Below, piece after piece: positions 29,240 through 39,206 of a stretch of 64,000 nucleotides of DNA. This DNA comes from Spirochaetia bacterium. GTDB taxonomy: Bacteria; Spirochaetota; Spirochaetia; UBA9216. Within the stretch, counting starts at the first letter, position 1, and every line of letters begins with the position of its first letter. The notes beneath the pieces are model-generated. The model saw nothing but the letters and a program-made list of their open reading frames with translations. It searched no databases and had not been told where the DNA came from. The position numbers and the translations under genes are program-made. The stretch covers positions 493,881-557,880 of the forward strand of contig OZ223272.1 in NCBI GenBank assembly GCA_965140585.1, read 5' to 3'.

Positions 29240-30823
29240 ATGAATTTTATTAACCTTGATAAGACCAAAACTTACAGCAAACTAATGGAACTGAAGGCGC
29301 CGTCACTGAAAGCGGTAATAAGTCCGGAAAGAATTGCAGCATATTCAATCAAAGCTGCAGCGGGGCTGACATACAACTATTCTGCCAAAACTGTCGATGA
29401 GACAATCATCGATACCCTTGGAGAACTGGCTCTTGAACAGGAACTCATTCAGAAATACATGAGCATACTCAAAGGCGAGCGGATGAATACAGGTGAGAAC
29501 CGTATGGTGCTTCATCAGCTGACCCGCGGAATCACAGTAGCTCCGGTTTCCGAGAACGAACAGAATCTTGCTGATTTTTACGTTGAACAGCAGAAAAAGA
29601 CCGCTGATTTTGCAAAGGCCGTTCACAGCGGAGCAATAAAGGGATCAACCGGGAAAGAATTTGATACTGTAGTGCAGATTGGCATCGGCGGATCGGATCT
29701 TGGTCCAAGGGCGCTTTATCTTGCGCTTGAGGGATGGGCTGAGGTCAATAATAAAGCTGTTATGGACGCTCTGTTTATCTCAAACGTTGACCCTGATGAC
29801 GCAACCGCGGTCGCCTCATCAATAGATCCTGAAACAACCCTTTTTATTCTAGTATCAAAAAGCGGAACAACCCAGGAAACCCTTACAAACCGCGACTTTG
29901 TTCTCGAAATTATCAAACAGTCCGGAACAGAAGGTCTGGATCCGTCAAAACACATGATAGCGGTAACAAGCCAAACCAGCCCTATGGCAGGCTCCGACAT
30001 GTTTCTCGACAGTTTTTATATCGATGATTACATCGGCGGAAGATACTCATCAACCAGTGCAGTAGGCGGGGTGGTTCTGAGTCTGGCTTACGGCGCAGAC
30101 AGTTTTTCAGCCCTGCTGGCCGGTGCGCATGAGGCCGATGTTATGGCGCTTGAGGCTGATATAAGAGAAAACGCAGCCCTCATGGATGCCATGATCGGAC
30201 TTTTTGAACGAAACATAATGAACTTGCCTTCTACAGCGGTACTTCCCTACTCCCAGGCACTTTCCCGATTTCCGGCTCACCTTCAGCAGCTTGATATGGA
30301 AAGCAACGGAAAATCTGTAAACAGAAACGGTGAACCCATAGCATACAGCACAGGCCCTGTTATTTTCGGTGAACCGGGAACAAACGGACAGCACAGTTTT
30401 TATCAGCTGCTTCACCAGGGAACCGATATAGTGCCGCTGCAGTTTATCGGCTTTAAGAACTCTCAGAGAGGTTTCGACCTTGAAATTGAAGGCTCAACCA
30501 GCCAGCAGAAACTCAATGCTAACCTAGCGGCCCAGATAACAGCCTTTGCACTTGGCCAGAAAAACGCAAACCCCAATAAAAACTTCAGCGGTGAACGTCC
30601 GTCAAGTCTTCTCTGGGGTTCGGATCTTAACCCTGAATCACTTGGGGCTCTGCTTGCCCACTTCGAGAACAAGGTAATGTTCCAGGGCCTTGCATGGAAC
30701 ATCAACTCCTTTGACCAGGAAGGTGTTCAGCTTGGTAAGGTTCTGGCCAAAAAACTGCTGGACAACAACGGAGCCGGAGCTGACGCGGTTCTCAAGGCCT
30801 ATTATCAGATTCTAAACGACTAA
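29240..30823 (+). CDS. pgi: Glucose-6-phosphate isomerase
   Basis: IGIGGSDLGP, SKSGTTQET, IGGRYS, QQLDMESNGK, GTNGQHSFYQLLHQG, FDQEGVQLGK. Confidence 0.97.
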   Translation: MNFINLDKTKTYSKLMELKAPSLKAVISPERIAAYSIKAAAGLTYNYSAKTVDETIIDTLGELALEQELIQKYMSILKGERMNTGENRMVLHQLTRGITVAPVSENEQNLADFYVEQQKKTADFAKAVHSGAIKGSTGKEFDTVVQIGIGGSDLGPRALYLALEGWAEVNNKAVMDALFISNVDPDDATAVASSIDPETTLFILVSKSGTTQETLTNRDFVLEIIKQSGTEGLDPSKHMIAVTSQTSPMAGSDMFLDSFYIDDYIGGRYSSTSAVGGVVLSLAYGADSFSALLAGAHEADVMALEADIRENAALMDAMIGLFERNIMNLPSTAVLPYSQALSRFPAHLQQLDMESNGKSVNRNGEPIAYSTGPVIFGEPGTNGQHSFYQLLHQGTDIVPLQFIGFKNSQRGFDLEIEGSTSQQKLNANLAAQITAFALGQKNANPNKNFSGERPSSLLWGSDLNPESLGALLAHFENKVMFQGLAWNINSFDQEGVQLGKVLAKKLLDNNGAGADAVLKAYYQILND

Positions 30824-30920: not shown

Positions 30921-32558
30921 ATGCTTAATAGAAATTTTGTAGAAACCATAAAACAGAGCCTTACTGAGAACTGGGACAGGCCCTGCTTTTCAAATTACGG
31001 TGAAGAGATCTTTTACTACCGTGACGTTGCCGAGAGTATACTCACTTTTCACGAAGCCTTCAGGATAAACGGAATAGAACCCGGCAATAAGATTGCAGTC
31101 TGCGGAAGAAATTCCGTCAACTGGGCAAAGACATATCTGGCCGCTGTGACATACGGCGCTGTAATAGTACCGGTACTCCCGGACTTTTCAGCAGCAGATA
31201 TCACAAACATTATCAATCATTCTGAAGCCCGCTTCTTCTTCGCTGCAGATTATATCTGGAAGAATCTCAAAACGGAAGAAATGCCGAATCTTGAGCTGGT
31301 AATCAACCTTGAAGATTTCGCAATAATAAAAGCCGGCGAAAAGTATGATTCAGAGGTACTTCTTCACGCCCGTGCAGCACTTGAGAAGAAATACCCCGGC
31401 GGACTCACCCCGGAATCGGTACAGTTTGATGAAATTTCAAACGATACCCTCGAATCAATAGTTTATACATCAGGAACAACCGGATTTTCAAAGGGTGTAA
31501 TGCTTAACCACAACTGTATGATTGCAAACGTTGACTATGCGCAGCATAACATAGCGCTTAAAGCCGGAGACAAGATTGTCAGTTTTCTGCCGGTTGCACA
31601 CAGTTTCGGCTGCGCATTCGAGTTCCTTTTCCCTTTCAATACGGGCTGCCATATAACTTTCCTGCACAAGAGGGTTTCTCCTCAGCTGATAATGAAGGCT
31701 TTCGGGGAAATCAGTCCAAGGCTCATCCTTTCAGTTCCGCTTGTTATTGAAAAAATATACTTCAAACAGCTGAAACCGATTTTGAATAAACCATATGCTA
31801 AACTCCCGTTTATAAAGCAGATCCTCGACAGGGTCATTTACAAGAAGCTCACCGCTACTTTCGGCGGAAACTTTATATCAATTGTCATAGGAGCAGCAGC
31901 GTTCAACCCGGAAGTTGAAGCCTTCCTCAGCAGGATCAAATTCAGATTTACTGTAGGCTATGGAATGACCGAATGCGGACCGCTTATCAGCTACATGCCC
32001 TGGGATATCTATAAAAGCGCTTCTGCAGGCCGTATTATAAATCACCTCGAATGTAAAATAGATTCTGAGGATCCGCAGAATGTCCTGGGTGAAATATGCG
32101 TTCGCGGCGAGAACGTAATGCTCGGCTACTATAAAAATGAAGAGGCAACCGCCCAGTCCATCGACAAGGACGGATGGCTCCATACCGGAGACATGGGAAC
32201 CCTCGATCCGGACGGAACAGTCTATATCAAGGGCCGCTGCAAGAACATGCTGCTGGGACCTGCCGGACAGAACATCTACCCTGAAGAAATTGAAGCAAAA
32301 CTGAATAATTCAGACATTATTGCAGACTCTTTGGTAATATCACGTGATCACCGGATCATCGCAATCGTATACGCAGATCCTGACTACATCGAATCAAAAA
32401 GTCTTTCCGATGCCGATGTGGATAAGGCATTATATGATGCAATGAAAACACTAAATAAAGAACTTCCTTCCTATTCAACTCTGGTAGCCATAGAAAGAAG
32501 GAAAGAGGAATTCCAGAAAACACCTACTGCAAAAATTAAACGATACCTCTACGAATAA
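30921..32558 (+). CDS. Long-chain-fatty-acid--CoA ligase (AMP-binding)
   Basis: YTSGTTGFSKGVML, GYGMTE, GWLHTGDMG, IKGR. Confidence 0.92.
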   Translation: MLNRNFVETIKQSLTENWDRPCFSNYGEEIFYYRDVAESILTFHEAFRINGIEPGNKIAVCGRNSVNWAKTYLAAVTYGAVIVPVLPDFSAADITNIINHSEARFFFAADYIWKNLKTEEMPNLELVINLEDFAIIKAGEKYDSEVLLHARAALEKKYPGGLTPESVQFDEISNDTLESIVYTSGTTGFSKGVMLNHNCMIANVDYAQHNIALKAGDKIVSFLPVAHSFGCAFEFLFPFNTGCHITFLHKRVSPQLIMKAFGEISPRLILSVPLVIEKIYFKQLKPILNKPYAKLPFIKQILDRVIYKKLTATFGGNFISIVIGAAAFNPEVEAFLSRIKFRFTVGYGMTECGPLISYMPWDIYKSASAGRIINHLECKIDSEDPQNVLGEICVRGENVMLGYYKNEEATAQSIDKDGWLHTGDMGTLDPDGTVYIKGRCKNMLLGPAGQNIYPEEIEAKLNNSDIIADSLVISRDHRIIAIVYADPDYIESKSLSDADVDKALYDAMKTLNKELPSYSTLVAIERRKEEFQKTPTAKIKRYLYE

Positions 32559-32624: not shown

Positions 32625-32653
32625 TTGACCCCTTCATAAATAGAATATAAAAT
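32625..32653 (+). promoter_or_regulatory. sigma70 promoter of the riboswitch-controlled operon
   Basis: TTGACC(32625)-17-TAAAAT(32648), placing +1 near 32660 immediately before the riboswitch. Confidence 0.7.
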
Positions 32654-32661
32654 AATCCCGT

Positions 32662-32762
32662 TATTCTTCCGAACCCTGATACCTAAAAATCACAATATTT
32701 AAGGAATGAGGGTCGAAGGGCTGTTCCGGAAACAGAACAGCCTCCCGTGTTTGGAAAGGAAG
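32662..32762 (+). ncRNA. Moco-family riboswitch, P3-less (Tuco/tungsten-cofactor type)
   Basis: P1 TTCTTCCGAA / TTTGGAAAGGAA; P2 with CCTAA...TAAGG receptor-like element; AGGGCTGTTC-CGGAAACA-GAACAGCCT hairpin; 3' signature GCCTCCCGTGTTTGGAAAGGA as in the moaA leader; P1 3' strand contains the SD of the ATG at 32767. Confidence 0.88.
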
Positions 32763-32766
32763 TGGG

Positions 32767-34257
32767 ATGCTCAAAAAATCGATTCTTGTTCTCTTATTGA
32801 TCTCAGCCTCAGCAAGCGTCAGTGCTCTTGATTTCACCCTGAATGGAAAACTCTGGAAATCTTTTACATCTGAAAACCTTCATACACTCAGCTATCCGGT
32901 ACCTGCAGAGGACAATAAGGCTGTTGGAATATCTATCGATGAGCTCTTCCCTCCTATGTATGAAGCATGGAAAATAAATATTTCAATTGACGGCGGCCTG
33001 ATAGAAAAAAAAGAAAATCAGCTTGCCGATCTGCTTCCCCGGATTTATCTGACAGAAACAGATTCAGGATGGGCACTTAAAGGTCCCGGATGGACTGTCG
33101 AGGATGTTCAGGGCATTGATTTACGAGGTGAAAAGCTGATTACCTCAAAGCTTGAAATATGGACAAACTGGGAAGGTGAAGATCTTCTGAAAGAAGAAAT
33201 CAGCAGATATGCAGAGCTGCATAACATCAGCATAAACACGGTTTCCGTTCCCCGGCCCGACTCCAAACTCATTGCCGTTTCAGGCGGAGGAGGAAGCGTT
33301 CCCGATATAATAATGGTTCAATCGACCTATATGGAAAGTCTTTCGAAATCGGAAAGTATACAGAACCTTGATTACATGTATCCGGAAGGACTTATAAAAG
33401 AAGGCCGGGAGGTTTTCAGTCTTGACGGAAAAACCTGGGCGGTCCCATTTTACTATGATGCCCAGATGATGTTCATCAACACCGGGCTGATGGATACTCC
33501 AAAAAACAGCTGGACAACGAAAGACTATGAAACTTATGCCTCGCAGTTAAAAGCCCGGGGAATAATTCCGTCGGCATGGAACGCCTACTCATCATCTTTT
33601 CTTATCCCCTTTCAGATAAGCTTCGGTAAAAAGACGCTGATTGAACCTGACGGCTCGGTAATCATAAATGATGAGGCAAATATCAGATCACTTAAGTATA
33701 TTCTTAGCCTGCAGGGGAGGGGCCTGATGGAGCCGATGGAACGTGATGCCATGACATCGATGTTTGTATCAGGAGATGTTGGTATGATCATAAGCGCCTC
33801 ATACAGCATTCCCTATTTTGAAAAGCTTGGCATACCCTTTGAGGCAGTGCCGCTGCCGATCAACTCCGAAACCGGAATCCGGCTTTCAGGCCTTCTTGAT
33901 TTCAAGGGTTTTGCAGTGCCTAAAAAAAGCCGCAATACCGCCGCAGCCGTCAGACTGATCGAATATCTCTGCGGAGCAGGCGTTCAGCAGAGATTTACCG
34001 CAGCCGTTTCAAAACTTCCCGCATCAGAAGAAGCACTGAAGCTTGCCGCAGATGCAAACAGATACATGAAGCAACTGACCATCGGATCGGAAACCGGGAC
34101 AATAATCCCACCGGATCAGGCTTTTGGAATATATAAGAATACAATGTGGAAAATGCTTAGATTCGCGCTTTCAGGAAGGATGTCTCCTGAAGCTGTCTTG
34201 GAACAGACTCAGAAGATTATAAATAACAACTTACAGCAAAAAAAGGAGATAGAATGA
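32767..34257 (+). CDS. ABC transporter extracellular solute-binding protein (sugar-type, family 1) with an extra N-terminal domain
   Basis: Signal peptide, about 100 aa extra domain, then LEIWTNW, GGSVPDII, DGKTWAVPFY, F.SG.VGMI and P.S motifs of MalE-like proteins. Confidence 0.85.
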   Translation: MLKKSILVLLLISASASVSALDFTLNGKLWKSFTSENLHTLSYPVPAEDNKAVGISIDELFPPMYEAWKINISIDGGLIEKKENQLADLLPRIYLTETDSGWALKGPGWTVEDVQGIDLRGEKLITSKLEIWTNWEGEDLLKEEISRYAELHNISINTVSVPRPDSKLIAVSGGGGSVPDIIMVQSTYMESLSKSESIQNLDYMYPEGLIKEGREVFSLDGKTWAVPFYYDAQMMFINTGLMDTPKNSWTTKDYETYASQLKARGIIPSAWNAYSSSFLIPFQISFGKKTLIEPDGSVIINDEANIRSLKYILSLQGRGLMEPMERDAMTSMFVSGDVGMIISASYSIPYFEKLGIPFEAVPLPINSETGIRLSGLLDFKGFAVPKKSRNTAAAVRLIEYLCGAGVQQRFTAAVSKLPASEEALKLAADANRYMKQLTIGSETGTIIPPDQAFGIYKNTMWKMLRFALSGRMSPEAVLEQTQKIINNNLQQKKEIE

Positions 34258-35651
34258 AACTGACTGTAAAAACATTATTATCAGTTCTGCTGCTTGCCGC
34301 ACTGCTCATCAGCGGCTGCACCACAGCATCACAAAGCCCCTCAGGCCTTGTAATTGAAGAAACAGAAGCTGACGCAGTCGCACATGCGACCCCTAAGGGA
34401 ACCGGATGGATAATCAGTATCAGCGGTGTCAGAGAAGATGAAATTTGGGAATCCAATTTCGAAAAATGGAAGGAAATGGAAGGCTCGGAATACGGTGAAT
34501 ACATGTTCCAGCTTAAAGGTGAAGATACAAGCTTCATGGCCATCCCTTTTAAAAACATCATTGCCATGGTTGATGATCCTGATGCGACAATGCCCTACGC
34601 ATTTGATGCTGAACTTTGGAAATCAGGATATCAAATAACTTTTACAGCTTCCGACGGATATTCAGCTACAATCAACACTGCAGATTTTGCAGTGGAAGAT
34701 CTCTACATAGCAGATGCAATGCGGGGTGAAAAAGTAGCTCCCATGTTGACCGGAAATATTTCAACTCAGTTCTGGGTAAAAGAACTCGCTTCAATTACAG
34801 CAGATCTTAAACCGGTTTCACTTGCTGAAAACAATTTTGAACTAATCCTTGACATCGGCGAAAAACATGCCGTTAAAACAATCGCAGAGCTTGAAAAGCT
34901 TCCCTACTACATTGAGGACAAGGGGAACTACACCAACAGCTATGACAATAATTTCCAGTATATATGGGGAGGAGTAAAGATTGTCGATCTTATAGAAGAA
35001 TATGCATCGCTTACACCTGAAATGACGGTAGTAATCGAGGCAATGGACGGTTATGCCATGACCTACAGTGCTTCGCAGCTTCTGGACAACTCTGACGGCG
35101 ACTGGATTCTTGCCTTCAAGGAAAACGGCGAATACATGCCCGAAGATCCCGGTTATATCCGGCTTGTAAAGGTAGGACCCAACAACCCCAATATCACAGG
35201 ACATGTTTCTGCACGGATGATAAAGAAGATCATCATCAAGGATGTAGCATTCAAGGATTTCAGCCTCGATCTTATACAGAACGGCAGGACTGAGGTAATG
35301 GACAGACAGACTCTTCAGAGCGGAGTTACAACTTCACGAACAAAGGTTGCCTTCTTCAATAAAAAGGCCGGTGAGGCTGTGGAATACCTGGGCATTCCCG
35401 TATACGTGCTTCTTGAAAGGTACACCGACTATAAGACTGTAACCGTACAGGCCGCCGACGGATACTCTATTAGTCTCAATGCCGCCGAGCTTGCAGGAAA
35501 CGATGATGTAATTATTGCAATGTTCTACGGCGATGAGAGCGAACTTTCCGAAAGTGAATTCCCGCTCGTTATAGTGTGGGATCAGGATGCAGCCATTGTA
35601 CCGGCAGGAATCAAGGCGGTAAGAAACATTTCTGCCCTGATTCTTGAATAA
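34254..35651 (+). CDS. Lipoprotein with three tandem molybdopterin-oxidoreductase-like domains
   Basis: Lipobox LLISGC; three repeats containing ASDGY/AMDGY/AADGY and ending WVKELASI/SARMIKKII/AVRNISALI; WGGVKIVDLI, GYIRLV and FPLVIV resemble the Oxidored_molyb fold; ATGA overlap with the upstream gene. Confidence 0.75.
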   Translation: MKLTVKTLLSVLLLAALLISGCTTASQSPSGLVIEETEADAVAHATPKGTGWIISISGVREDEIWESNFEKWKEMEGSEYGEYMFQLKGEDTSFMAIPFKNIIAMVDDPDATMPYAFDAELWKSGYQITFTASDGYSATINTADFAVEDLYIADAMRGEKVAPMLTGNISTQFWVKELASITADLKPVSLAENNFELILDIGEKHAVKTIAELEKLPYYIEDKGNYTNSYDNNFQYIWGGVKIVDLIEEYASLTPEMTVVIEAMDGYAMTYSASQLLDNSDGDWILAFKENGEYMPEDPGYIRLVKVGPNNPNITGHVSARMIKKIIIKDVAFKDFSLDLIQNGRTEVMDRQTLQSGVTTSRTKVAFFNKKAGEAVEYLGIPVYVLLERYTDYKTVTVQAADGYSISLNAAELAGNDDVIIAMFYGDESELSESEFPLVIVWDQDAAIVPAGIKAVRNISALILE

Positions 35652-37653
35652 AAACAGCTTATTAAAAAACATATACTACTTTATCCCCGTCCTGCTTCTT
35701 ACGGCAGCGGCGGGGATTGCTCCCTTTATTGAAGCCTTTCAGACTTCTTTTTATCATGATATTTACGGGCAGAAAACATTCGCCGGACTCGAAAACTATT
35801 TCTTCCTGAGGCAGGACAGCGGATTCCGGCTAAGTGTAAACATAACAGCGCTATGGTCGATCGGCTCCGCGCTTTTGAGTGTCTTTACCGGTTTTATCCT
35901 TGCATCAATGATGACATCGGTAAAAAAACTTTCAAAATTACTCTACGGGGCATTGCTGATTCCCTGGGGTATTCCAGTTTACATAGCCGTACCGCTCTGG
36001 AGGGCGCTTATTCACGGCAACGGGGGAAATTCAGTCTTCACGGAACTCTTCGGACTCAGTTTCAACCTGATGATGGATCCGGCTGCGGGTTTTATATCCT
36101 GTCTTGCTGTGAACCTCTGGCTTACACTGCCGTTCACTGTTTTTATAATTCACGGAGCAATAAGCCGCATTCCGGTTACCATGAAAGAAGCCGCTGAAGT
36201 TGACGGGGCTGATCGGATAACAGTTTCCATGCATGTTATAATGCCTCAGATCAAAAATGTCCTGATCACTATGGGAATACTCAACTTCATCAAGGCATTC
36301 AAGGAATTTTCAGTTCCCTTTCTGATGACAGCCGGCGGCCCGCCGCTGCTCAGCGGTATCACAGACCGGTTTATTATCGGTGCAGTTACAACCCTCGATG
36401 TCTTCATATATGATATCTTCAATACAACTGAGGACATGGGAATTTCATCCGCATACTCAGTGATGACGGCAGGTCTGATTATTTTACTCATTGCGGTGTG
36501 GTATATCTCTGGTTCATCAAAGAAATCAGCAGCATTCCGATTTAGAATACTTTCAGTATCCACAGCCCTTATACAGCTTATATTCTCCGGCCTTTCCGGA
36601 GGGCTTCCTGCTCTGGGCTACCTCACCGGCCTTATTAACAGAAAACTTTTTTACATTTCAGCATTAATTCATTTCATTTTTATCTGCATCAAAACAGCTC
36701 ATAACGGATTTCTTTCCGGTTTTGATCCGGGAATTATCCCGGCTGTCTACACTGCCGTATGGGTAGTACTTCAGCACAGAAGAAATCCTGAAAACCGGAA
36801 AACTTCAATACAACCGATAATTCGCGGACTCAAACTGCCTGCAGCCGGTTTATCGCTGGCGGCCTCAGGCCTGATCATTGTTTCGTCTGCTGTAATTATT
36901 TACCTGCTGCTATGGATGAGCTTTTCAGGAATCAGTGCCTGCTTTATCGACGGTTTTCTGCCTCCATCGCCGGGTATTGAAAGCTACCGTGAGGCTTTCA
37001 GCGAACATAACATTATATACTACTTTAAAAACACAATAATTGTTTCAGCCCTTACCGGAGTTCTAACTCCTCTTGTCTGCTTCCCGGCAGCAATGTATCT
37101 TAACAGCAGAGGCAAGGTCTTTACCGGAACAGTTCTTGCAGCCATACAGCTTATAAGTATTGCCGGAGGAATGCATTCCCTTATACCTCTTTATGAGATA
37201 TTCAGAAAGGCGGGACTTGTTAATTCCTTCACTCCTCTGATAATAATCGGAACCTATCATGCAGTTCCCGTTGCAATCTTCACAATTACAGCATGGCTTG
37301 ATCGTATGCCCGATTCTTTCAGGGATGCAGCTCTGGTGGAAGGAATGAAGCCGTTCGGATATCTCATAAGAGTACTGATGCCGCTGTCAATTCCTGTGAT
37401 TGTCACTTCGTTTATGGCAGCCTTTATATCGGCCTGGAATTCTTTCATGGTGCCGCTTATCTTTCTGAATGAGGAACGTCTCTACACCATAAGCATCAAA
37501 ATATACTCTCTGATAGGAAGCATTGCATCCGGAACACCTTCCTGGAATATATTTGCAGCGGTATCTGTTCTTAACTGTCTGATTATTGTTTTTATTTTCT
37601 CATGGTTTAGAAAACCGGCGGGAAAAACCGGTATTTCAGAGGTTATGGATTAA
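35644..37653 (+). CDS. Fused ABC transporter permease (MalF-like plus MalG-like)
   Basis: FAGLENY and EAAEVDGA (first EAA loop); YFKNTII, DAALVEG (second EAA loop), FISAWNSF; start overlaps the previous stop codon. Confidence 0.9.
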   Translation: MNKNSLLKNIYYFIPVLLLTAAAGIAPFIEAFQTSFYHDIYGQKTFAGLENYFFLRQDSGFRLSVNITALWSIGSALLSVFTGFILASMMTSVKKLSKLLYGALLIPWGIPVYIAVPLWRALIHGNGGNSVFTELFGLSFNLMMDPAAGFISCLAVNLWLTLPFTVFIIHGAISRIPVTMKEAAEVDGADRITVSMHVIMPQIKNVLITMGILNFIKAFKEFSVPFLMTAGGPPLLSGITDRFIIGAVTTLDVFIYDIFNTTEDMGISSAYSVMTAGLIILLIAVWYISGSSKKSAAFRFRILSVSTALIQLIFSGLSGGLPALGYLTGLINRKLFYISALIHFIFICIKTAHNGFLSGFDPGIIPAVYTAVWVVLQHRRNPENRKTSIQPIIRGLKLPAAGLSLAASGLIIVSSAVIIYLLLWMSFSGISACFIDGFLPPSPGIESYREAFSEHNIIYYFKNTIIVSALTGVLTPLVCFPAAMYLNSRGKVFTGTVLAAIQLISIAGGMHSLIPLYEIFRKAGLVNSFTPLIIIGTYHAVPVAIFTITAWLDRMPDSFRDAALVEGMKPFGYLIRVLMPLSIPVIVTSFMAAFISAWNSFMVPLIFLNEERLYTISIKIYSLIGSIASGTPSWNIFAAVSVLNCLIIVFIFSWFRKPAGKTGISEVMD

Positions 37654-37673: not shown

Positions 37674-39206
37674 TTATTTTTTCTTGCTGTAATGCTGCAG
37701 CAGCTGAACAAAATAATAACTTTTCTTGTAGATTGCTGAAAGACGCTCATCAACCAGACCATCCATCGCATTTTCAATTTCTTTCCAGTTTGTTATCAGT
37801 TCATGCGGTTTTTTATGAAAATCTTCAATAACCATCTTCAGACTTTTTGCAAGAGCTATGAGGTGAAGACCGGTTGTATTTATCATACCCGCGGCTTCCT
37901 GATTCACATCCTTAAGCTCCTTCCTGAGTTTGGTTATATGTGATTTATCCGCATCACGCCTTTTCAGAAGCTTCGAAAGTTCGGCGCCTTTTGCCCCTTC
38001 TTCAGAAAGGTTCTCATCAAATTTTACAACCTCATCTGCAACAGCCATCAGTCCATAGAAAGCTTCCGAAAGCTGCTGTGAGTTTATATTTGTTGTCCAC
38101 TTCCCCCTGATTATCAGGATGTCGCTTACTTCTCTGATATCCTTCTTGCAGTAATCGACAAGGAAGGCTTTCAGATAGTTCATCGGTGCTATGTAAATAT
38201 ATCCTCCCAGCATCTTCTTCTCGAACGCAAGGTTAGCCTTTTCTGTATAGTGATTCATTCTTGATACAGCAGATGTTCCGAAAACCTTGAAGGCAAGATC
38301 ATCGAGCTTACTCTTCTGCTGTTCTTTCATGATTTTCTGAATTATAAGCTCAGCCTGGCTTTTAAGCTTTGTAAGATAGTCCTCAACTATTCTGTTTGCC
38401 GGCCGGGCGACTTGATAACTGTAGGAAGGGTTTTTATCAATGCTCTTTATTATCAGTTCAAGAACCTTTGAGGTTCTTACATCCCTGAGTTTTCTCAACT
38501 GCTTTGTCCATTCACTTCTGTTAAGCACTTCCGCACCCTTATATGCGCTAAGGACATCAAAAAGGTCATTCCAGTCGGCATCCAGTTCAAGAAAGGGTAT
38601 CAGCGTCAGAAAGTCCTTAAGATCTTCGGATACATACTCGCCGTTTATATCCTCAAATCTGGGGCTGTAATTAAAATCATTTTCAGGGAATCTGGAATCA
38701 AATTTCCGCAGGAAGAAATAAAAGTCAAATGAAATAAAATCAACGAAGACAGCCATAAGGTTATAAGTTGAATTAATTGATTTCACCTTGGCTGTATCAA
38801 AAAATGAGAAGAAATTAACCAGATTGTTTTTAAGTTCATCAGCCACAGCCTTGATATTACCGTTATTCTGCTTGATAGCTTCACGAATCGCAGATTCATC
38901 AAAACTGTCACGGATCTCAACCTGTTTTTCATTAAGGGAATTCTCAATAATTATTGTTTTCAGAACGACTGAAGATTCGGCGTGATCCAGAAGAAGTTTG
39001 GTGGGTCCGATAACACGGTAAAAATCATAGAAGAACTTTGCCATAGCAGAGAGTGCTTCTACTGATTTAGGTTTGTAAAACTTGAATTTGCTCTTTTTAA
39101 GTTGTTTGTCAATCTCTTTAAGGAGCCGCTTCTTTTCTTTTTCAGGATCAGCGGATCTTCCAATTAGAGACAGTATCTTTTCAAGAAAACCGGAACCATC
39201 GCTCAA
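37674..39206 (-). CDS. DUF5312-like conserved spirochaete protein
   Basis: FLEKIL.L...DPEKEKKRLLK.I.K.L N-terminus and FDFYFFLRKFD; GGAGGG RBS with TTG start. Confidence 0.7.
   Translation of the reverse strand: MSDGSGFLEKILSLIGRSADPEKEKKRLLKEIDKQLKKSKFKFYKPKSVEALSAMAKFFYDFYRVIGPTKLLLDHAESSVVLKTIIIENSLNEKQVEIRDSFDESAIREAIKQNNGNIKAVADELKNNLVNFFSFFDTAKVKSINSTYNLMAVFVDFISFDFYFFLRKFDSRFPENDFNYSPRFEDINGEYVSEDLKDFLTLIPFLELDADWNDLFDVLSAYKGAEVLNRSEWTKQLRKLRDVRTSKVLELIIKSIDKNPSYSYQVARPANRIVEDYLTKLKSQAELIIQKIMKEQQKSKLDDLAFKVFGTSAVSRMNHYTEKANLAFEKKMLGGYIYIAPMNYLKAFLVDYCKKDIREVSDILIIRGKWTTNINSQQLSEAFYGLMAVADEVVKFDENLSEEGAKGAELSKLLKRRDADKSHITKLRKELKDVNQEAAGMINTTGLHLIALAKSLKMVIEDFHKKPHELITNWKEIENAMDGLVDERLSAIYKKSYYFVQLLQHYSKKK

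Follow-up and report, generated by a model that had tools for sequence, protein, structure and literature searches.

A riboswitch-controlled transporter cassette of Spirochaetota as a candidate importer of the molybdenum/tungsten pterin cofactor

Introduction

What does a riboswitch for the molybdenum cofactor (Moco) or its tungsten counterpart (Tuco) control when it stands in front of a transporter built like a sugar importer? The question is raised by a stretch of 64,000 nt from a Spirochaetia bacterium (NCBI GenBank assembly GCA_965140585.1, contig OZ223272.1, positions 493,881 to 557,880; hereafter the window), in which such a riboswitch is followed by three overlapping genes for a solute-binding protein (SBP), a lipoprotein and a permease, together called the cassette. 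According to the available text of Regulski et al. (2008; PMC2408646), the Moco/Tuco motif precedes transporters of molybdenum (Mo) and tungsten (W), cofactor biosynthesis genes and cofactor-using enzymes. The cassette is probably an ATP-binding cassette (ABC) importer that salvages a molybdopterin (MPT)-type cofactor and is repressed by feedback, a reading to which we assign a probability of about 0.6. Cofactor salvage had already been proposed in a first-pass annotation made from the sequence alone. It finds support in the riboswitch, in the conservation of the cassette, in its co-occurrence with aldehyde ferredoxin oxidoreductase (AOR) and in the PruR-like fold of the lipoprotein, from which the function is inferred.

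Results

A P3-less riboswitch that holds the ribosome-binding site

The Rfam model of the Moco RNA motif (RF01055) matches positions 32655-32777 of the plus strand at 74.6 bits against a gathering cut-off of 36 (E = 3.5e-16), and this is the sole Rfam match at gathering level within the window. The first-pass annotation had called a Moco-family riboswitch here and named this search as a check, which bears the call out. It had also placed the Shine-Dalgarno (SD) sequence in helix P1, as is indeed read from the sequence: GGAAG at 32758-32762 (+) forms the 3′ strand of P1 and ends 4 nt 5′ of the ATG at 32767. Because the 3′ strand of P1 is the SD, formation of P1 buries the ribosome-binding site (RBS) of the first gene, which makes this a translational OFF expression platform.

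The P3 stem is absent from the window aptamer, 15 P3 model positions being deleted in the Rfam RF01055 alignment. Variants of the Moco motif without P3 have been linked to Tuco metabolism, although in the available text of that study Tuco binding itself rests on correlation (Regulski et al., 2008; PMC2408646). The P3-less class to which the window aptamer belongs is proposed to sense Tuco.

Aptamers of relatives were collected with a covariance model built from five aptamers of the genome to which the window belongs, giving 63 matches in the cassette loci described below. In an alignment of 64 related aptamers, both partners have changed in 24 of 29 pairs, and 88.6% of cells pair, compared with 38-54% once the partners are slid; 0 of 500 shuffles reach the observed value. 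This alignment was fitted to the covariance model and hence leans towards the structure. The conserved helices P1, P2 and P4 of RF01055 are supported by covariation in the cassette aptamers. In alignment A3, helix 2 is followed by helix 3 after just five columns in each of the 64 matches, with zero insert columns between P2 and P4. Six cassette aptamers are longer; Rfam shows P3 to be deleted in these as well (6/6), their extra length being an insert in the P2 loop.

A promoter had been claimed in front of the riboswitch. The sequence TTGACC-17 nt-TAAAAT at 32625-32653 (+) matches 10 of 12 consensus positions and ends 2 nt before the aptamer match. Promoter-like sites show no excess in the region, however (11 found vs 9.6 in shuffles). 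The match to the consensus stands, and since such sites are no commoner than in shuffles this is a plausible candidate promoter of the cassette.

Three overlapping genes for an importer with a pterin-fold lipoprotein

The three genes lie on the plus strand and encode a secreted SBP of 496 aa (32767-34257; Pfam SBP_bac_8/SBP_bac_1), a Sec-type lipoprotein of 465 aa (34254-35651; Pfam Oxidored_molyb and a lipobox) and a fused double permease of 669 aa with a TTG start (35644-37653; two BPD_transp_1 stretches). They overlap by 4 nt (SBP and lipoprotein) and 8 nt (lipoprotein and permease), in agreement with the translational coupling proposed earlier. None of the cassette proteins reaches an NCBIfam equivalog cut-off.

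In the lipoprotein a disordered linker is followed by three related β-rich domains resembling sulfite oxidase (SUOX) and PruR, at about residues 46-186, 190-335 and 336-465. The protein was modelled from a 23-sequence alignment (pLDDT 83.9, pTM 0.58), and its fold figures come from a second-look alignment of the best chains found by Foldseek. In the model, domain 3 (336-465) aligns with PruR 7kom at Z 16.3 (rmsd 2.4, 124 of 134 residues) and with 7rkb, the PruR structure solved with neopterin, at Z 16.1; domain 2 aligns with the Moco domain of sulfite oxidase 3hbg at Z 15.7 (rmsd 2.5, 141 residues). At the level of sequence, Pfam Oxidored_molyb (PF00174) matches residues 235-333 with 43.8 bits against a cut-off of 24 (E = 2.6e-11), spanning profile positions 68-165 of 169 only. 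A phmmer search of the PDB with domain 3 returned nothing, similarity to the PruR sequence being undetectable, and the same search with domain 2 returned only plant sulfite oxidase at E of about 0.9; a profile of alignment A1 reached 7kom at E 0.28. Homologs of the lipoprotein are labelled 'molybdopterin-dependent oxidoreductase' in their source records. The first-pass annotation had described a surface lipoprotein with three molybdopterin-oxidoreductase-like domains. The lipobox LLISGC, read directly in the N-terminus, upholds the lipoprotein, and the triple domain is backed by the fold matches and by hhalign probabilities of 98.5 for domain 1 vs domain 3 and 95.5 for domain 2 vs domain 3, although Pfam detects a single domain and domain 1 vs domain 2 reaches only 52.

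Two features of the lipoprotein bear on whether it works as an enzyme. Its best-conserved family stretch, DPGYIRLVKVGPxNPNIxGHxSARM, lies within domain 2, and among 23 homologs there is no invariant or nearly invariant Cys, so that the Mo-ligating Cys by which SUOX enzymes are recognized is missing. Export of proteins with their cofactor already inserted requires the Tat route. The N-terminus, MKLTVKTLLSVLLLAALLISGC, read by eye, has no twin arginine and carries the lipobox at its end; with this Sec/lipobox signal the lipoprotein is therefore expected to be exported unfolded, without a pre-inserted cofactor. The metal ligand of SUOX enzymes is likewise lacking in PruR, according to the available text of a review (PMC13259868).

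The SBP (SBP_bac_8, E = 2.4e-19) consists of a signal peptide, an N-terminal β/α domain at about residues 20-123 and a MalE-fold core at 126-496. In a model from 27 sequences (pLDDT 92.2, pTM 0.88), the core aligns with 2fnc_A at Z 41.3 (rmsd 2.7, 361 residues, 21% identity), which establishes the MalE-like binding protein of the earlier annotation; the MalE equivalog of NCBIfam scores 38.5 against a cut-off of 291. The whole-model fold search spanned residues 126-496 only. For the N-terminal domain, an Atlas lead of 0.77 points to clusters with Oxidored_molyb in 19-22% of members, and the order of secondary-structure elements is alike in this domain and in those of the lipoprotein. Comparison by hhalign with the three lipoprotein domains gives probabilities of 0.5-4.6%. 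With hhalign under 5% and the Atlas lead alone, a fourth PruR-like domain is not claimed.

A predicted complex of SBP and lipoprotein scores 0.41 (runs 0.41, 0.47 and 0.36) against 0.18 for the best control; the runs share at least 40% of contacts, with partner pLDDT of at least 82. Of 80 solved complexes, 58 pass the mark used for such scores, as do 2 of 110 mismatched pairs; among those that pass, scores of at most 0.60 belong to only 7 of the 80 solved complexes and to both mismatches, counts that hold only roughly here as own alignments were used for this pair. The model lends weak support to a contact that the two proteins may make.

The permease fuses a MalF-like half to a MalG-like half, and the two BPD_transp_1 stretches in its 669 aa agree with what had been claimed of it. 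Its best NCBIfam matches, GlcU (71.3/340), MalF (70.4/392) and MalG (56.9/261), stay far below their cut-offs, and ModB is missed as well (modB, 53 bits against an equivalog cut-off of 182.6). The genome of the window has one gene for a MalK-type ATPase (OB_MalK), at a site away from the cassette. With the ATPases of this genome as tblastn queries, none was found adjoining the cassette in any of the 75 loci described next; at one locus (L019) the strand of the permease also carries an ABC ATPase-like match, 1.7 kb further downstream.

Conservation of the cassette and its riboswitch

The lipoprotein has 132 relatives at E<=1e-3 among 8000 candidates scored, the named ones being from Spirochaetales, Spirochaeta and Oceanispirochaeta. 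A scan of one genome per species located the cassette in 75 loci, almost all titled Spirochaetota, with one Bacteroidales and one Thermotoga, both metagenome-assembled genomes (MAGs). The order SBP-lipoprotein-permease is found by tblastn in 66 of the 75; eight loci are cut by contig ends, and in the sole rearranged one (L076) a permease-like gene lies upstream on the opposite strand.

That homologous cassettes keep the riboswitch, a check proposed in the first-pass annotation, holds for 60 of the 64 loci whose upstream sequence is available, where it stands directly 5′ of the SBP gene; three of these 60 matches are cut by a contig end, and the remaining 11 of the 75 loci could not be judged because the contig ends. 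The match at L062 is weak (34.3 bits) and was not confirmed by Rfam at gathering level, which did confirm the weak matches at L059, L053 and L055 as well as the six long ones. Of 57 loci, 54 have their start codon inside the aptamer match, 4-25 nt ahead of its end (exceptions L058, L086 and L079), which makes the OFF design with its SD in P1 a conserved trait of the cassette. In only three of the 75 loci does tblastn place AOR or its Fe-S partner nearby (L015, L021 and L070).

Co-occurrence with AOR and loss of the cofactor pathway

Whole genomes were searched for 48 of the 75 loci, picked by eye for long flanks before any counting. The AOR N-domain (PF02730) is present in 47 of the 48, MoaC in 24, the MoaA C-domain in 23, MoeA_N in 21, MoaE in six and TupA, with the protein of the window's genome as query (E<=1e-15), in 17. 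MoaA, MoaC and MoeA are jointly absent from 23 of the 48, all of which hold AOR and none of which holds TupA; it counts against taking this figure at face value that the four genes often share an operon, so that joint absence from draft genomes is not four independent observations. In these 23 pathway-less genomes the riboswitch before the cassette is clear in 21, weak in one (L062) and missing from one (L024, whose record is titled as a chromosome). The L024 genome gave no MoaA, MoaC, MoeA or TupA match and two AOR matches; the genomes of L025, L027 and L047 hold MoaA and MoaC and gave no MoeA_N or TupA match.

No quality figures accompany the 48 genomes, and the test was therefore repeated with 401 genomes of the class whose completeness is 90% or more. 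Of these, 38 have the cassette, 158 MoaC and 162 AOR, and 37 of the 38 cassette carriers hold AOR. Among the 125 genomes with strong AOR matches (E<=1e-55), the cassette occurs in 18 of 27 without MoaC vs 19 of 98 with it (odds ratio 8.3; Fisher p 6e-6). This p overstates the association, as related genomes do not count as independent and most are moreover MAGs, a point to be held against it. The 18 MoaC-negative cassette genomes come from 12 families and are 90-97% complete. Both the co-occurrence with AOR and the link to missing biosynthesis genes, which the first-pass annotation had suggested looking for, thus appear in each sample.

Five pathway-less genomes together hold 11 RF01055 matches. 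The cassette accounts for five (5/5 genomes) and AOR or Fe-S/AOR operons for three; the rest stand before nicotinamide adenine dinucleotide (NAD) aldehyde dehydrogenases, two by Pfam and a third likely so by size only. No transporter besides the cassette was found behind the 11 matches. A genome that keeps AOR and the riboswitch and lacks MoaA, MoaC, MoeA and TupA must obtain its pterin cofactor from outside, and uptake of the metal alone would be insufficient.

The riboswitch regulon of the window genome and the neighbouring genes

The genome to which the window belongs is 98.49% complete and contains six RF01055 matches, whose targets were assigned by Pfam. Besides the cassette, these are an SBP_bac_11-like protein with a Peripla_BP_2/FecCD/ATPase importer; a second Peripla_BP_2/FecCD/ATPase importer with a DUF364/DUF4213 'heavy-metal chelation' protein; an NAD-dependent aldehyde dehydrogenase (Aldedh; riboswitch C7:210541-210666, gene L008:7436-8884, minus strand); a long operon of TupA-like/permease/ATPase-MoeA-MoeA-PBP_like-MoaA-MoaC-MOSC-MogA/MoaB (C6:700013-707900, L010); and a 4Fe-4S protein with AOR (C9:227357-227482, L011). 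The riboswitches of the two Peripla_BP_2/FecCD importers are at C1:58481 (L007) and C3:56352 (L009). DUF364 (PF04016), chosen to mark the other transporter behind a riboswitch, occurs in 19 of the 48 cassette genomes and six of the 23 pathway-less ones, without a pattern. At 178 nt, the aptamer before tupABC-moeA-moaAC (C6:700013-700190, L010:1-178) exceeds the other five by about 50 nt.

The leaders differ in their expression platforms. Those of the cassette, the aldehyde dehydrogenase, the DUF364 importer and tupABC-moeA-moaAC have the SD in P1, the start codon standing 9-10 nt short of the end of the match. In the AOR leader of this genome, which has a second SD-like sequence, AAGGAG, the start codon lies 6 nt past the end of the match; in all four AOR and Fe-S/AOR leaders examined (this genome, L098, L099 and L101) the start lies 5-37 nt beyond the aptamer. 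The platform of the AOR leaders thus differs from that of the cassette and may work with the opposite sign. An Aldedh gene behind a P3-less riboswitch with the SD in P1 is found in this genome and in two pathway-less ones (L100 and L103), and probably at L102. Like metE under its B12 riboswitch, this riboswitch-led aldehyde dehydrogenase appears to be a stand-in for AOR that needs no tungsten and would be shut down while cofactor is available.

The neighbours of the cassette in the window are unrelated housekeeping genes, and the cassette is self-contained here. Upstream on the plus strand lie glucose-6-phosphate isomerase (29240-30823) and an acyl-CoA ligase (30921-32558), and downstream follows a convergent gene for a DUF5312 protein (37674-39206, minus strand), all assigned by Pfam/NCBIfam.

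Discussion

A proposed mechanism of cofactor salvage

From the riboswitch and its platform, the folds, the conservation of the cassette and its co-occurrence pattern, we infer what is bound, in which order it is captured and relayed, which ATPase takes part and in which direction transport runs, as follows. AOR-family enzymes use a non-nucleotide pyranopterin, a form that the SUOX fold binds too. In this non-nucleotide form, either the tungsten cofactor or MPT without metal is the most likely cargo, although a breakdown product may be carried instead; a metal-loaded cargo is favoured because the pathway-less genomes have lost MoeA and TupA. The membrane-anchored lipoprotein, exported empty via Sec, would capture the pterin with its three PruR/sulfite-oxidase-like domains and pass it to the soluble MalE-fold SBP, which would dock on the fused permease; energy could come from a shared MalK-type ATPase encoded elsewhere. 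When cofactor is plentiful, the P3-less aptamer would bind it and P1 would form, sequestering the RBS of the first gene, and the coupled downstream genes would be shut off together with its translation. A more far-reaching version holds that many anaerobic Spirochaetota are true tungsten-pyranopterin auxotrophs which import metal-loaded cofactor through the cassette and run several AOR-family enzymes on what other organisms have made, and that the triple PruR-like lipoprotein is the first known extracellular Moco/Tuco receptor; to this we give slightly less than even odds.

Several observations weigh against salvage. The operon contains no ATPase gene, and no outer-membrane passage for the cassette was found. 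Free cofactor is chemically labile. The pocket of PruR is truncated and likely too small for the larger Moco, according to the available text of the review (PMC13259868), and the nearest solved relatives of the SBP core are maltodextrin binders, so that a sugar-like ligand is compatible with its fold. Four loci titled Sphaerochaetaceae (L024, L025, L027 and L047) hold the cassette without RF01055, on which our own model and Rfam agree. The window's own genome has moaA, moaC, two moeA, mogA/moaB and tupABC and is by these not an auxotroph; since it keeps moaA, moaC and moeA, salvage here would run alongside synthesis. MoaE was not detected in it, either by Pfam or with the MoaE of three relatives as queries (best E 1.2), which suggests either that a non-orthologous MPT synthase takes its place or that the gap is real. 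The same gene went undetected in 18 of 24 MoaC-positive cassette genomes, the pathway of this clade being incompletely understood. In the class sample, nine strong-AOR, MoaC-negative genomes lack the cassette, eight of them with a single AOR and 90-94% complete, as do 30 further MoaC-negative genomes with single weak AOR-like matches, nearly all of one family (f12). Either the cassette is therefore not the sole route, or these matches are not pterin enzymes.

Alternative explanations

One alternative is that the cargo is a different organic solute: a small pterin (neopterin or monapterin, for instance), a precursor of the folate type or an oligosaccharide. The riboswitch would then serve only to couple use of that solute to cofactor status. 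Small pterins are bound by PruR, into which Moco is said not to fit (PMC13259868, available text), maltodextrins are the ligands of the nearest solved relatives of the SBP, and at four loci the riboswitch is missing. We nevertheless consider this unlikely: 54 of 57 loci conserve a Tuco/Moco aptamer that holds the SD in P1, the cassette is nearly always accompanied by AOR (37/38) and is enriched where MoaC is absent (18/27 vs 19/98), sugar-binder equivalog cut-offs are far off (MalE 38.5 vs 291), and there is no obvious point in expressing the uptake genes of a carbon source when cofactor is low. Import of the metal itself, as tungstate or molybdate or in a thio- or chelated form of sulfidic habitats, with the SUOX-like domains binding the oxyanion or metal complex, would fit the riboswitch, which commonly precedes Mo/W transporters (PMC2408646, available text), as well as the absence of a TupA homolog from all 23 pathway-less genomes, the weak ModB similarity of the permease (53 bits) and the breadth of the SBP_bac_8 family. 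It appears quite improbable, as metal alone is useless to 23 genomes that lack MoaA, MoaC and MoeA and still keep the cassette. The SBP, moreover, has the MalE fold (Z 41.3) and is not ModA-, TupA- or WtpA-like, a TupA type being present elsewhere in its own genome; the ModB equivalog cut-off is missed (53 vs 182.6), and the fold of the lipoprotein is that of pterin binders.

The lipoprotein could also be read as a cofactor-using extracytoplasmic oxidoreductase of the sulfite-oxidase/MsrP kind, with the riboswitch marking a cofactor user as it does for AOR. Such a role accounts for the Oxidored_molyb match above cut-off (43.8 vs 24), for the 'molybdopterin-dependent oxidoreductase' labels of the homologs and for the same riboswitch class in front of AOR genes. 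It is very improbable given that the metal-ligating Cys is not conserved, that a Sec/lipobox rather than a Tat signal gives no export with cofactor inserted, that the platform is the SD-in-P1 type of biosynthesis and uptake genes and not the AOR type, and that the lipoprotein is flanked by SBP and permease in 66 of 75 loci. Import of a molybdopterin-type cofactor is the reading that we retain.

Implications

If cofactor salvage is confirmed, the Mo/W pterin cofactor would be exchanged between microbes and tungsten enzymes would run without moaA and moaC, which would change how Mo/W metabolism is deduced from genomes. On the more far-reaching version, the most labile common cofactor would become a shared community good, like B12. 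The Tuco riboswitch would gain a role as feedback on uptake, and the PruR fold would extend from signalling to nutrient capture. A protein scaffold that stabilizes the cofactor outside cells would also be of interest for delivery in Moco deficiency.

In the literature searched, no bacterial importer of Moco, MPT or Tuco was found, with the limit that the supplement of Regulski et al. and the RegPrecise regulon files of PMC3766115 may hold instances; nor was any paper found that joins AOR, spirochetes, molybdopterin and tungsten. In its available text, a survey of riboswitch regulons lists coenzyme uptake for B12, thiamin, riboflavin, queuosine and folate, and none for Moco (PMC3766115). How pterins cross membranes is unknown according to the available text of a 2026 pterin review (PMC13259868).

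Comparison with known systems

Importers of cofactors under riboswitch control are well known. Examples are BtuFCD/BtuB for B12, which works with accessory surface lipoproteins, and the transporters of thiamine and of queuosine precursors. The cassette resembles these salvage systems in having a cofactor-sensing OFF riboswitch before uptake genes, in being enriched where the pathway is absent and in its accessory lipoprotein. It differs from them in the Moco/Tuco class of cofactor, the SUOX/PruR fold of the putative receptor and a chassis of the MalEFG type.

To our knowledge, PruR is the only extracytoplasmic pterin-binding protein with a solved structure. It is a periplasmic protein of Proteobacteria (PDB 7kom, 7kos, 7kp2 and 7rkb; PMC11194511, PMC13259868). 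The cassette lipoprotein is likewise secreted, has the SUOX-type fold and lacks the Mo-ligating Cys; pterin binding outside the cytoplasm is the feature that PruR would bring to the comparison. Unlike PruR, which is a single domain of about 170 aa and signals to DcpA-/DTB-type regulators, the lipoprotein consists of three fused domains and belongs to a Spirochaetota operon for an ABC importer, with a Moco/Tuco riboswitch in front.

Many CUT1 systems share one ATPase. The MalE-fold SBP, the MalF/MalG-like permease halves and the absence of an ATPase from the operon are all shared with MalEFGK2 and the CUT1 family, unlike which the cassette has fused permease halves, an N-terminal SBP domain of ~100 aa, a pterin-fold lipoprotein and a riboswitch, and misses the equivalog cut-offs. 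ModABC, TupABC and WtpABC are also typical targets of Moco/Tuco riboswitches, and the window's genome has its own tupABC behind another copy; the cassette, in contrast, uses another family of binding protein, does not reach the ModB cut-off and persists without pterin synthesis. Life on the Moco of others is known from Caenorhabditis elegans, which takes up dietary protein-bound Moco, a form that is stable and bioavailable according to the available text (PMC7849362); there the consumer is an animal whose transporter is unknown, whereas the cassette is a bacterial ABC system.

Judged from its sequence, the cassette is thus not a ModABC/TupABC transporter, a SUOX enzyme, a PruR signalling module or an equivalog of a named sugar importer. 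It is probably the first candidate for a bacterial importer of the tungsten/molybdenum pterin cofactor. Riboswitch-gated ABC importers for cofactor salvage are known as such, and what would be new here is the class of cargo and the architecture of the receptor.

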